Part shown: positions 3,001-9,000 of the stretch, piece after piece
How positions within the stretch are numbered: the stretch's first letter is position 1
How the letters are laid out: every line of letters starts with the position of its first letter
Source: a virus
Taxonomy: Duplodnaviria > Heunggongvirae > Uroviricota > Caudoviricetes
Virus record (IMG/VR): IMGVR_UViG_2718217787_000009
Direction: 5' to 3' (one strand)
Length of the DNA stretch: 57,395 nt
Position numbers: made by a program

Positions 3001-6000
3001 GCGCATCTCTGCCTGAATTTCGGGCCATTTGGCACCAGGCTTACATTTATGCTTAACCCACCCGATGGCATGCAGCTTAAGCTCCGGATACATAGCGTTA
3101 ACTTCTGGCATTTTCATCAACGCTTCAACGATATGGCCGTCGAATGTTGCCATGTCTTCCTGCAACAATTCCTGTGCGCTAATCACCATATCAACAGTGA
3201 TGTTTTCACATGTGTCGAACTTAACCATGACAGCGTTCTGTACTTCAGGGGCCAGGTTGTCAAAAGTGACGTTCATCGGATCGGATTCAGTCTCGACCGG
3301 GACAAAGGAAGCAGACGCCTCATCCCAGCGGTTTTCCTGCATATATTCAGCATCCCAGGAATCGAGGGCAGGGCGGGGTATACCGGGTTTATCCTCGCAA
3401 ACAAGAAATTTATAAGCGCAGTCCTGAGCAGCCGGATAATGTTCCAGGAATTGCCAGTGAAATTTTGCGCGGGCGCGACGTTCATCACCGGCTTCAATGG
3501 CAGTGGCTACAGCGACGGCACCTTCTTCCTTTATTGCCTGTTCGTCCGGAATGGCGGCGCAAATAAAGACTTTACTCATTTTGTTTTACCTCATTACAGA
3601 TTTAAGGGTGAACAAATCCCTGCCATTGCTGGCATATAAGAATGAAATCGGATGTTTATTACGGAACTGTTTTAAAGACCTGCCGGGATTTCGTTATTAT
3701 CCTGGTGAATAACTTTATCGACCGGGTAACAGTTACCGGGAATTTTCTGTTCGGTTGCTGCAGTCACACACTCCTGCATTGTCCTGTGAACACTGACTGC
3801 AATATCAACTGGCTCTCCGGAAACAAGAAAAACTGTCAGAACAAGTGCAAATGCTGTATTCATTGCCAGCATCCTTTTTGTATCGGACGTAAACGGGCCA
3901 GCATTGAAAGAATGCATATTTTATTTAATAGCTCCCGTTCGTGTTTTCTCTTGTTAATGGCATCTTCAGTAAATACAGGGTTACTGATAGTGACACCAAT
4001 TTCAAAACAACCTTCAGACGTATTAACGTTTGGTAATAACGTTTCCATTATCGCGTCCTCAACAATGAATTTTGTGATGCGGTGCCTGGTGCCTCCAGGT
4101 GACGTTAACCAGTTAACAATTAACGCCGGATACAGAGAATCCCCCCATAACACTGTTTTTGGTTTTAACTGTTCCGCGTGCGCTCAGCCGCATTCACCGC
4201 ATCACAAAATTCACTTTAAAAAGGGCGGCAGAGCAGTCACGGAGTAAAACTGATACCGCCAAACGTCACCAGAAAATTGATAACAGAGGGCGTTGCAGCG
4301 GGGTTGTCACTTAAGCGTATGGTCAACCTGACAACCCGGTGTCCTCAACGGGGGAAGGAATAACCCCTCCATACTTACCGCCGCGCCATTTCGCGGATTG
4401 CCACAACCGGAAGCGCACGGTCGACGAAAATTTAACGACAGGCTATCTATGAACCAGCTACCTCGCCGTGCGCTTTCGCGTTATGGTCTGACTTTTCAGG
4501 GAAATATCCTTTCAGTAAACTGTCAGTGCCGTATGCTCACCCGTGTCCGGCGCACGCACTCCACCTCACCCGTGGAGAACTCCTTAATTACCAACCTTAG
4601 CTTCGTTGGTTAGCTATTAACGCGGGTATGTAATCATTCTGGCAATGCTTAATGCCGCTGCTTTTTCCAGATTGGTGATATCCTGCTCCAGAGCGGACAG
4701 ATTTTCAGCCTGCTTAGCCCTGGCTTCATTGGCCCATTTCAGATCCTGCGCTGCATTAATTTTCTGGTGCATCCACTCATAAAGTTCATCATCGGTATAG
4801 TCTGGCGCGATGATGACGGGTTCTCGTTTCTGCATGTCGGCTCCTTGTGGTTAGCGTTGCCTGCTTTTAACCACGTCAGGCGAGGTGGTATCCTCTGAGG
4901 GGTCTGTTACTCGAGAGGAAATTGGTTATGAATACAATCAAGTTTTCTTGCCCAGAATGTGGTGGCGAAGTCTTTGACACATCCTTTAAGCCGCAGGGCT
5001 CTGACAGTTTCGCGGGAGCCATCTGCAAAAATTGTGGTCACCTTGTAACTGAAGATGAGTCCTCGCAGTTCGATGACGAAATCGTTGACAATATCTTCGG
5101 TGCACTCACCAGAGACTTTCTGAAGTAAAGGCGCATACCGCTTAGTTACCGCTCTGATAACTCTTACCTGTCCTGCAATGGCGCTGATGTCAATATAAAG
5201 CGCCATTGCTGCTTCTTTGCCGATCCCGGGATGCCTTCCATTCTGATGTTTGACTTCGCCCACTGAGAAACCCTCTGTTTCCCCTTAACGCCGGGGTAGC
5301 GGAACAAAAAACTGCTGCATAGTTATTAAAGTTGAACCCTGCCGTCATGTTCATACGCCTCGGGCTGGCTACTTAACCCCTGACCACTGCCGGGTAACTC
5401 GAAGTATTTCCCTGCGTTCTGTGGGGCGGGGTGGGTTGGTATTTTTAGTTTAATAAACATTAAACTTAAGTCAAGTAAAAACTAAACCGCGGGACATAAC
5501 AAACACAACGCTTTTGATAAAGTCGTTGCGGTTGTTATGTTTCTATTGGTAGTGAAAGTTAGGGAAACTGGCGTCTTGCGTGGATCACGTTTACTACTTC
5601 AACGCTTGATGTTGTTACGCGGTATAGAATTATATAGTTAGGGTGGGCTACAATCTCACGCAAGCCAGGTACTCTGTCGCTTGGTGGGTATAAATACGGA
5701 TGTTCGGATAACGGCAGCACACAACCCCTTAATCGCTGCCATAAGCGTTCAGCCGCATCTATGTCGAAACGAGCAATATAACTAGTTATATCATCTAGGT
5801 CGGTATCTGCGCTTTCAAGCCATAACACGGGTAACATTTTACTGCTTGCTCCGTTCCTTGCGCATCTTAGCAAAGCGTTCTGCCATTCTGCGCTCAACTT
5901 CGTCATGGGGAATTGCTGGGCGCGGATCTGCAAGGCTCGTTGCTACTTTCGCACGCAGCCATTCGTTGTAACTGTTTTCTTGTTCAATGGTTTCAAATTC

Positions 6001-9000
6001 AGAAACCATTGGTGAAAGGGCTCTATTCATGTTTCCTCCGGTTTTATAACTCAGGCGCGGCGGCATTTTTGCGCCGCAATCCATCTCGCTATGAGATCTT
6101 CCATTGATTCTTTTTTCTGCTTTAACTCGCTGATTATCTGGCGTTGCTCATCCTCAGGGAAGGCTGAAAAAATCTGCAATAATTCCAGTTGATTAGACGT
6201 TAACCCTGCATGTGGTGGAGAACCCCCCGGTTGTTCTGCGTATTCCGCATCCAGATACCCTTCCGGCATCCCGTATGTTTGCTCTATTCTTCTGGCAGCC
6301 TTTTCTCCAAACGAGGCTCTCCCACTCATTAGTTGAGATAGGTAGCTCTTCTCTTTGGGTGGCAGAGTTTTATCTTTAAACCACTCCTTGAGACGTAAAC
6401 GGCGAATTTCTTTTTTTTGCATGTGGTAATTATCTTTAGTAATCACTAAACAAGCAAATACTTGACTTAATGGTTTATTAAACACTAAACTCGCAAAAAA
6501 ACACTAAACCGAGGAAGGTATGACATTAAAAGAGTTTATTAAATCATTAAGGGTTGGTGATGCTAAGAAATTCGCGGCCAGACTTGGTGTATCGCCATCT
6601 TACTTATCGCAAATGGCGTCTGGACGAACAGCTATATCTCCAACCCGCGCCCTTATGATCGAATCTGCGACGGAAGGCCAAGTAAGTAGGGCGGAGCTAC
6701 GACCCCATGATTGGGAGCTTATTTGGCCTGAGTATGCGAGCGGCATTCGTTTGGGGCAAACACATGTAGTTCATGCTGAAGGTGATTGTAGTGCATGCTT
6801 ATCTGATGGAGTTGATTCATGAAAATCAAGCATGAACACATCCGCATGGCGATGAATGTCTGGGCGCATCCGGACGGCGAAAAAGTACCGGCTGCGAAAA
6901 TTACCAAAGCGTATTTCGAGCTGGGAATGACGTTCCCGGAACTGTATGACGACAGCCATCCGGAAGCCCTGGCCCGTAATACCCAGAAAATTTTCCGTTG
7001 GCTGGATAAAGACACCCCTGATGCTGTTGAAAAAATGCAGGCTCTGTTACCGGCGATCGAAAAGGCGATGCCGCCTTTGCTGGTGGCCCGTATGCGCAGC
7101 CACAGTTCTGAATATTACCGTGAGATCGTCGAACGGAGGGATCGGCTGGTGAAGGATGTCGATGATTTTGTTGCGTCAGCGGTTGTTTTGTATGACCAGA
7201 TGAATCGGGCGGCCCGGCAGGGAATGCTGTGGTGATGCACTAAAAGCACGGTGTTCGGGGGTTTTATGAGCAGCAAGCTTCATGGTCTTGTCTGGGAAGG
7301 GTGCGCCTTCACCGGCATGATCTTATCCAGGGTGGCGGTTATGGCCCGTCTTGCAGACTACAGCAATGACGAGGGCGTGTCATGGCCTGCCATTGAAACT
7401 ATCCGGCGTCAGATCGGTGCAAGAAGTGAATCCACAGTGAAATCGGCTATTGCAGAACTGGCGAAAGAGGGCTGGCTGACGAAGGAAGAGCGTAAGGTCG
7501 GTGGGCGTAATGTAAGCAATATCTATCGGCTTAATGTGGAAAAACTCGAAGCAGCTGCTGCGGCGGCGCGTGAGTCATATAAACCGAAAAGAAAAATTAG
7601 CCCGGCAAAAAATGACCCGTTAACAGTTGACCCGTCAAATATTGCCCCCTCAACGGTTGACCCGTCAAATTTTGATGGATCAACTGTTGATAACAAACTG
7701 CCGATTAGGGGGGCGATGATTGACCCCGATCCGTCAGTATTAAAACCTGATCCGTCAGATAAAAGATCTTCTTGTCCGGACGCTTCGCAACCGGACCCGC
7801 AGACGGCTGAACAGAATTTTTTAACCCGACACCCTGACGCGGTTGTGTTCAGTGCGAAAAAACGCCAGTGGGGAAGTCAGGAAGATTTGGTGTGCGCACA
7901 GTGGATCTGGGGACGAATCGTGAGTCTTTACGAGCAGGCGGCCAGCGATGATGGCGAGATCACGAGACCGAAAGAACCCAACTGGACTGCATGGGCCAAT
8001 GACGTGCGGACAATGCGGATGCTGGATGGCAGAACTCACAGACAAATTTGTGAAATGTTTGGGCGTCTCCAGCGGGATTCGTTCTGGGTAAAAAACATCA
8101 TGAGTCCGGCAAAACTCCGGGAAAAATGGGATGAACTGGTTATCCGCCTGGGGCGTTCGCCCGCGCAGCGTTGCGTGAATCACATTTCTGAACCGGACAC
8201 TGAAATACCGCCGGGATTCAGGGGGTGACGTGTCATGAAAAACATTGCGGCAGTTGGGGTTCTTGAACGTATTCGCAGACTTGCACCACAGGGGGCGGTT
8301 CCACCGTACCGGACGGTGGAGGAGTGGCGGGAATGGCAACTTGCTGAAGGACGAAAACGCAGCGAGGAGATTAACCGCCTGAATCATCAGGTGCGGGTTG
8401 AAAAAATCCTGAACCGTGCGGGCATCCAGCCGCTTCACAGGAAGTGCTCATTCGGGAACTACCGGGTGCAGAACGACGGTCAGCGCCATGCTCTGAGCCA
8501 GGCGAAATCCATTGCCGATGAATTGATGACCGGATGTACAAACTTCGTGTTCAGCGGTAAACCTGGTACCGGTAAAAATCACCTGGCAGCAGCGATTGGC
8601 AATCGGCTGATGGCGAAGGGGAGAAGCGTGATTATCGTCACCGTGTCCGATGTCATGAGCGTGTTGCATGACGGCTACGACAACGGCCAGTCCGGGGAAA
8701 AATTTTTACAGGAGCTTTGTGGAGTTGACCTTCTGGTCCTTGATGAAATTGGCATGCAGCGGGATACGCGCAACGAGCAGGTCACGCTGAACCAGATAGT
8801 CGACCGCAGAACGGCTTCGATGCGTAGTGTCGGAATGCTGACGAACCTGAATCACGCAGCGATGAGCACACTCCTCGGAGATCGGGTGATGGACCGTATG
8901 ACCATGAATGGTGGTCGTTGGGTGAATTTTAACTGGGAGAGCTGGCGGTCAAACGTTGGACGTCAGGGTATGTGAGAATTTTTGACGAGGTAAATTTTCG

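Follow-up and report, generated by a model that had tools for sequence, protein, structure and literature searches.

What kind of locus is formed by a ParE-type toxin–antitoxin pair that lies next to a phage repressor gene, between two inverted, operator-like repeats? The question is raised by positions 5441-6520 of the IMG/VR virus record IMGVR_UViG_2718217787_000009, a Caudoviricetes sequence of 57,395 nucleotides (the window). An initial annotation, made from the sequence alone, had placed the pair in the position that rexAB occupies in phage lambda and had suggested that it serves either phage exclusion or prophage stabilization. We found that 5441-6520 is almost certainly the paaR2-paaA2-parE2 operon, a three-component type II toxin–antitoxin system that belongs to the immunity region of a lambdoid prophage (CP-933P/Sp12 type) from Escherichia coli O157:H7. 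The locus is already known: together with its operators, promoters and addiction activity it has been published and structurally characterized. The feature had been read correctly but is not new, and only the idea of a Rex-like exclusion function is unreported in the literature searched.

Jurenas et al. (2021 mBio, PMC8630535) described the same locus in the cryptic prophage CP-933P of strain EDL933, which they state to be identical to Sp12 of strain Sakai. All 18 of the 18 EDL933-derived primers tested (Table S3 of that paper) map exactly onto the window, and by this mapping the immunity region that was cloned there corresponds to window 5264-7265. Within these limits, compared through proteins, primers and intergenic length, we detected no difference from the published CP-933P locus, and the strain assignment of the window reaches as far as O157:H7 type. 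Many E. coli O157:H7 chromosomes carry the 2-kb region with 100% identity. Its context in O157:H7 is a lambdoid prophage adjoining ynfA-ynfB-speG, with replication genes on the right and ydfC, dicB, an exonuclease gene, xis and int on the left. With the replication genes O and P on the right of the switch and dicB/DicF on its left, the gene order is that of the lambda, Qin and Rac immunity regions. The locus was reportedly first described, as a three-component toxin–antitoxin system, by Hallez et al. (2010 Mol Microbiol 76:719).

Between the two repeats lie exactly three genes, all on the minus strand, and nothing else of substance:

6051-6422, minus strand: paaR2, CI-like repressor of 123 amino acids
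5839-6030, minus strand: paaA2, antitoxin of 63 amino acids without a DNA-binding domain
5559-5837, minus strand: parE2, ParE/RelE-superfamily toxin of 92 amino acids

This is the arrangement of a paaR-paaA-parE system, with the regulator gene first, all genes on the same strand, the order paaR2, paaA2, parE2 and gaps of 20 and 1 nucleotides. The longer gap, between paaR2 and paaA2, contains a GGAGG ribosome-binding site. The shorter one is the single base 5838, which separates the antitoxin stop codon (TAA, 5841-5839) from the toxin start codon (ATG, 5837-5835). Domains were called with Pfam profiles at their curated cut-offs, structural identities were established against PDB chains, and PADLOC was used for defence models. 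ParE2 matched the ParE_toxin profile (PF05016; E = 1.9e-16, 60.9 bits against a cut-off of 23) over profile positions 1-89 of 89, and 92 of its 92 residues are identical to chain B of PDB 5CW7 (ParE2 of E. coli O157); matches to the PDB ParE chains 3KXE and 6X0A were weak. PaaA2 matched the PaaA2 'stability determinant' profile (PF21217; E = 1e-19, 70.7 bits against a cut-off of 27), had no further domain in the Pfam search, and is identical to PDB 3ZBE over residues 2-63. These profile matches and the identity to crystallized ParE2 and PaaA2 bear out the initial annotation in its call of a ParE-type pair; its statements that only repressor, antitoxin and toxin genes lie between the repeats, on one strand, and that one nucleotide separates antitoxin and toxin were also accurate, whereas the toxin, given as 93 amino acids, has 92.

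The gene that had been taken for the repressor is paaR2, and its product has been shown to be a functional CI analogue (PMC8630535). Residues 1-66 of PaaR2, its N-terminal domain, are identical to PDB 7NKV, which is deposited as 'Phage repressor protein CI'. The paaR2 transcript is leaderless, starting at the ATG, and the N terminus of the protein is MQKKE (PMC8630535); the same N terminus is encoded in the window. We found no Pfam match for PaaR2, and the protein does not show the LexA/S24-type self-cleavage signature of an SOS-inducible repressor. The peptidase motif is reported to be missing and the prophage does not respond to mitomycin C (PMC8630535). Functionally the region resembles the lambda switch, except that cleavage of the repressor does not make it inducible by SOS.

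The regulatory sites that flank the three genes are the following:

5441-5490, minus strand: promoter PL933P with its OL operators, located by promoter scan, operator search and inverted repeats; fires leftward, away from the toxin–antitoxin operon
6423-6519, no single strand: divergent control region of 97 bp, with PRM933P leftward and PR933P rightward

A sequence of about 40 bp at 5441-5480 had been described as a near reverse complement of 6448-6487. The inverted similarity is real and goes beyond chance, but it is not one gapless block. A repeat search gave a perfect 12/12 inverted match (TACTTGACTTAA, 5466-5477 and 6459-6470) and a second inverted arm of 24 nucleotides at 79% identity (5448-5471 and 6460-6483), whose register is shifted by 2 nucleotides because the promoter spacers differ (16 versus 18). 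By promoter scan, PL is a minus-strand TTGACT-16-TAAACT running from 5474 to 5447 (-35 at 5474-5469, -10 at 5452-5447), and PR is a plus-strand TTGACT-18-TAAACT running from 6462 to 6491 (-35 at 6462-6467, -10 at 6486-6491) with the same hexamers. What the two repeats have in common is therefore a promoter combined with operators, rather than one 40-bp stretch and its reverse complement. Both sites overlap 18-bp palindromic operators of the form GTTTAnTAA..AyTAAAC, which lie at 5448-5465 (GTTTAATAAACATTAAAC) and 5470-5487 on the left and at 6434-6451 and 6473-6490 on the right, where a further ACTAAAC half-site is found at 6503-6509.

Local alignment of the reverse complement of 5420-5500 with the 97-bp intergenic region scored 18 (1000 shuffles: mean 8.8, standard deviation 1.6, maximum 17), and the PL site is the best match to the intergenic region in the 57-kb window, the intergenic region itself excepted. 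The operator pattern GTTTADTAANNAYTAAAC, searched with at most three mismatches, had eight matches against 1.4 expected, an enrichment of about 6-fold that none of 100 shuffles reached, and seven of the eight fall within 5448-5487 and 6434-6490. The ACTAAAC heptamer is present in four copies, all on one strand and all inside the two sites. Unlike the 18-bp pattern, the bare heptamer is not enriched across the window (4 versus 4.4 expected) and is uninformative alone.

These sites coincide with published ones. The length of 6423-6519, 97 bp, is that of the published paaR2/ydaS intergenic region, and the published primers for electrophoretic mobility shift assay, footprint and reporter experiments map within it. 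The PL933P reporter fragment of PMC8630535 corresponds to 5441-5558 (primers 5441-5462 and 5538-5558), so that it begins at the very coordinate at which the initial annotation had begun its left repeat. In that study PRM933P and PR933P were mapped by 5′ RACE, DNase I footprints of PaaR2 and YdaS were obtained over the intergenic region, and four evenly spaced 18-bp palindromes with the half-site consensus GTTTAGTAA were defined (PMC8630535). The same authors sought PL/OL analogues and named PL933P with OL1-3, which has the same -35 and -10 elements as PR933P and is repressed about 100-fold by PaaR2 and by YdaS; they themselves drew the comparison with lambda PL and the cI-rexA-rexB arrangement, and with CI in the octamerization of PaaR2 (PMC8630535). 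The likening of the repeats to OL and OR, and of the toxin–antitoxin position to the rexAB slot, thus agrees with what had been published: the left repeat is PL933P with OL1-3, and the cI-rexA-rexB comparison is the same one. The window contains what distinguishes a lambdoid immunity region, namely divergent repressor and cro-like genes, a short region between them with two promoters and repeated palindromic operators, and, past the repressor operon, a further group of operators that overlap a leftward PL. The case shows that lambda-like immunity architecture, together with toxin–antitoxin cargo in the rex slot, can be recovered from raw sequence alone.

Three further features complete the switch on its right side:

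6520-6822, plus strand: ydaS, Cro analogue of 100 amino acids, helix-turn-helix
6812-6829, plus strand: YdaT recognition site, TTGATT-N6-AATCAA, at the junction of ydaS and ydaT; occurs once in the window, without a mismatch
6819-7235, plus strand: ydaT, CII analogue of 138 amino acids

YdaS matched the Pfam profiles YdaS_toxin (E = 3.3e-12) and HTH_3, and YdaT matched YdaT_toxin (E = 2.4e-10) as well as PDB 8BT1 (E = 1.6e-85) and 3C4R (E = 2.1e-74). In the published scheme PaaR2, YdaS and YdaT are the analogues of CI, Cro and CII (PMC8630535). PR and PL are repressed by PaaR2, which at a low level also activates PRM. YdaS binds to the operators used by PaaR2 and acts as a repressor of all three promoters, PRM, PR and PL; its competition for the PaaR2 sites results in a heritable bistable switch. 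YdaT activates PRE933P (PMC8630535). The recognition motif of YdaT is given as TTGATT-N6-AATCAA in PMC9986795. The site at 6812-6829 lies inside the published PRE933P fragment (6728-6847; primers 6728-6746 and 6828-6847), which drives leftward transcription. We also observed that a gene identical to ydaT 6819-7235 is marked 'frameshifted' by NCBI PGAP in strain MB41-1, that the open reading frame of 138 amino acids matches crystallized YdaT (PDB 8BT1) over residues 2-135, and that the published ydaT reverse primer runs 8 nucleotides beyond the TGA to a TAA. The C-terminal end of ydaT may be inconsistently annotated.

The system is not confined to this prophage record. Of 5426 complete E. coli genomes, 632 carry the toxin–antitoxin pair, and 590 of these 632 have the full 2-kb immunity region. 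In Escherichia phage Evi (LR597642.1), an isolated temperate coliphage from the infant gut, paaR2-paaA2-parE2-ydaS is intact at 6001-7423 with 98.4% identity and a nearly identical PL site, which indicates that this immunity type is not confined to cryptic prophages. The parE2 open reading frame of Evi is intact but unannotated in its record. E. coli GF60 (NZ_CP172185.1) carries a variant, heteroimmune form of the immunity region at 3350-4900, in which PaaR is 71% identical and the toxin–antitoxin DNA 91.6% identical, and in which an extra HTH_3 gene of 132 amino acids stands between regulator and antitoxin; this variant may represent a four-gene version of the system. Its PL and PR both read TTGACT-18-TAAACT, with operators GTTTATTT..GTATAAAC. 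The left and right sites of GF60 have changed together, as is expected for operators of one repressor.

Published work also speaks to what the toxin–antitoxin cargo does. The initial annotation had held that its proposal would fail if the toxin were harmless when expressed alone or if the region were silent in lysogens; on both points the published results went the other way, in that ParE2 overexpression induces the SOS response, with ParE2 colocalizing with the nucleoid, and that paaA2-parE2 is transcribed in both states of the switch. PaaA2 is reported to be unstable and degraded by ClpAP and ClpXP, and plasmid stabilization by the operon to depend on these proteases. With or without ydaST, the operon stabilizes an unstable mini-F plasmid by post-segregational killing to an extent comparable to ccdAB, and the authors propose that it is an addiction module by which the immunity region and prophage are guarded against being lost or replaced through recombination (PMC8630535). 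The prophage-stabilization idea of the initial annotation matches this proposal. The co-transcription of paaA2-parE2 with paaR2, and the repression of the operon by PaaR2, are taken here from the literature.

Together these data give a mechanism in which PaaR2, the CI equivalent of the prophage, is produced from the leaderless PRM933P transcript, binds the 18-bp palindromic operators that overlap PRM and PR, and would likewise bind the matching ones at PL933P about 1 kb to the left. Rightward ydaS-ydaT transcription and leftward early transcription are thereby turned off. YdaS competes for the same sites, giving a bistable switch, and YdaT activates PRE, opening a second route of leftward transcription toward paaR2. 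Octamers of PaaR2 may loop OL to OR over the distance of about 1 kb. In this mechanism paaA2 and parE2 ride the repressor transcript in the slot of lambda rexA/rexB, and the labile, largely disordered PaaA2 neutralizes ParE2 by direct binding. If the locus were lost, PaaA2 would decay and ParE2 would be expected to damage the nucleoid and induce the SOS response, and cells that lose or replace the immunity region would be killed. The natural role of the pair is probably stabilization of the prophage or of its immunity region.

Several published points weigh against this reading of the locus. ParE2 is reported neither to bind GyrA59 nor to inhibit gyrase, and its molecular target is not settled in the literature. 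ParE2 was not found to be activated in one state of the switch or in the other, which leaves the natural trigger and benefit unproven, and stabilization was demonstrated on plasmids and not for the chromosomal prophage (PMC8630535). For reporter bistability, similarly, the copy of the region that was assayed was carried on a plasmid, and the literature has yet to define precisely which bases PaaR2 and YdaS contact (PMC8630535).

Of the alternatives, the one that survives best is that paaA2-parE2 acts in lysogens as a Rex-like abortive-infection or exclusion module, possibly besides its addiction role, although we regard this as unlikely. Several type II and type III toxin–antitoxin systems act in phage defence. 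The pair occupies the lambda rexAB slot, between PL/OL and the repressor gene and co-transcribed with the repressor; its antitoxin is of the unstable, ClpAP/ClpXP-degraded kind; and the module is both intact in the isolated coliphage Evi, at 98.4%, and found in the 632 complete E. coli genomes (of 5426) noted above. One could imagine, as a doubtful scenario, that a superinfecting phage blocks host transcription or stimulates Clp proteolysis, so that, with PaaA2 decaying, the cell would be killed or arrested by ParE2 before completion of the phage cycle. Beyond the operon position, however, we found no support for an exclusion function. Pfam assigns the pair to ParE and PaaA2 only, with no homology to RexA or RexB. 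PADLOC, run on all seven local proteins, returned no defence model for ParE2, PaaA2 or PaaR2 and only sub-threshold noise for YdaS and a zinc-ribbon open reading frame, which also counts against exclusion, as does the fact that no anti-phage test of PaaR2, PaaA2 or ParE2 was found in the literature searched, where paaR2 and phage defence came up together only in a survey of Burkholderia prophages. In addition, the toxin was not seen to be activated under the conditions that had been used (PMC8630535). The locus nevertheless points to the question of whether a toxin–antitoxin pair, carried as cargo on the transcript of a prophage repressor, gives the lysogen a defence against other phages as well.

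A second alternative is that PaaR2 and PaaA2 are the two halves of a split antitoxin in an ordinary self-regulating operon, with the repeats serving as the operon's own operators and not as immunity operators. This would account for a PaaA2 that lacks a DNA-binding domain, PaaR2 supplying the repression of the operon, and it would suit the first published description of a three-component toxin–antitoxin system. It is nonetheless very improbable. At the left site stands a promoter, repressed by PaaR2, whose transcription runs away from the operon, and PaaR2 mainly represses the divergent ydaS-ydaT, the products of which regulate the operon, in a gene order like that of lambda, Qin and Rac. The authors considered this possibility and set it aside, and the published regulation of PL, PR and PRE largely refutes it (PMC8630535). 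Finally, we rejected as scarcely credible, on the shuffle test, the operator enrichment and the published reporter data, the idea that 5441-5480 and 6448-6487 resemble each other in inverted orientation merely by chance, as two AT-rich stretches (22% and 31% G+C against 51% for the window) in which bare ACTAAAC is no more frequent than expected, because the alignment score exceeds that of every shuffle, the operator pattern is enriched and clustered at both sites with the four ACTAAAC copies on one strand inside them, the promoter hexamers are identical, the two sites co-vary in GF60 and the same proteins regulate both in the published reporters (PMC8630535).

As in lambda, the repressor gene of the paaR2-paaA2-parE2 immunity region is leaderless and read leftward, and its transcript continues into cargo genes; PRM and PR diverge and have multiple operators, and past the cargo a leftward PL carries a second cluster of operators. 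The region also shares a Cro-like competitor (YdaS), a CII-like activator of PRE (YdaT) and a repressor that octamerizes like CI. By contrast, the cargo here has no sequence homology to RexA or RexB and is a toxin–antitoxin addiction pair instead of an exclusion system, and PaaR2 lacks a RecA-stimulated self-cleavage domain and there is no response to mitomycin C. There are four 18-bp palindromes here versus three operators in lambda, and about 1 kb separates OL from OR; the corresponding distance in lambda is about 2.4 kb. With canonical parDE systems (RK2 ParDE and Vibrio cholerae ParDE2) the operon has in common the ParE fold and family (PF05016), an antitoxin that wraps the toxin, and post-segregational killing. 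It differs from them in that PaaA2 has no ribbon-helix-helix DNA-binding domain, regulation being handed to a separate phage repressor, and in the reported failure of ParE2 to bind GyrA59 or inhibit gyrase.

One more element lies between the operon and the leftward promoter:

5494-5540, minus strand: hairpin with 22-nucleotide arms and a 3-nucleotide loop, found as an inverted repeat between the parE2 stop codon and the PL -35

The hairpin has a folding energy of -24 kcal/mol (z = -4.16), and 1 of 200 shuffles folds as well. A consensus terminator scan of the minus strand did not call it. Judged from its fold, the hairpin may be a candidate terminator of the paaR2-paaA2-parE2 transcript, in the position of lambda timm. 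In GF60 a different hairpin is found at this position.

Leftward of the switch, PL drives a dicBF operon of the Qin type, with minus-strand features at approximately 4223-4274, 4617-4835 and 3860-4050. It includes the DicF small RNA (Rfam, 76.7 bits), and ydfC, dicB, a DUF1482 gene and an exonuclease gene of 823 amino acids then follow on the minus strand. For the open reading frames just downstream of PL933P, no function could be assigned in PMC8630535. The roughly 600 nucleotides between PL and ydfC (4836-5440) contain no annotated minus-strand gene. A plus-strand open reading frame at 4922-5128 is a convergent zinc-ribbon gene of 66-68 amino acids (ECs_2282 family), through which PL transcription would read antisense.

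An Rfam scan of the whole window gave nothing inside 5441-6520, and its matches elsewhere were DicF, sok, STnc100 and three tRNAs. Apart from DicF, these mark a late-gene regulatory region in which a hok/sok-type type I toxin–antitoxin antisense RNA (sok, 116.9 bits), three phage tRNA genes and the small RNA STnc100 are found at 11119-11293, 14209-14455 and 15233-15405. We also sought a second, cargo-free immunity region as an internal comparator; in O157:H7 strain MB41-1 it lies downstream, and it is absent from the window, which diverges beyond about 44 kb. The diverging right end (44240-57395) contains an ISEc8 element of the IS66 family at 50139-52580 and, at 53817-54464 on the minus strand, an open reading frame of 215 amino acids that may be NleG-like by its resemblance to known effectors.

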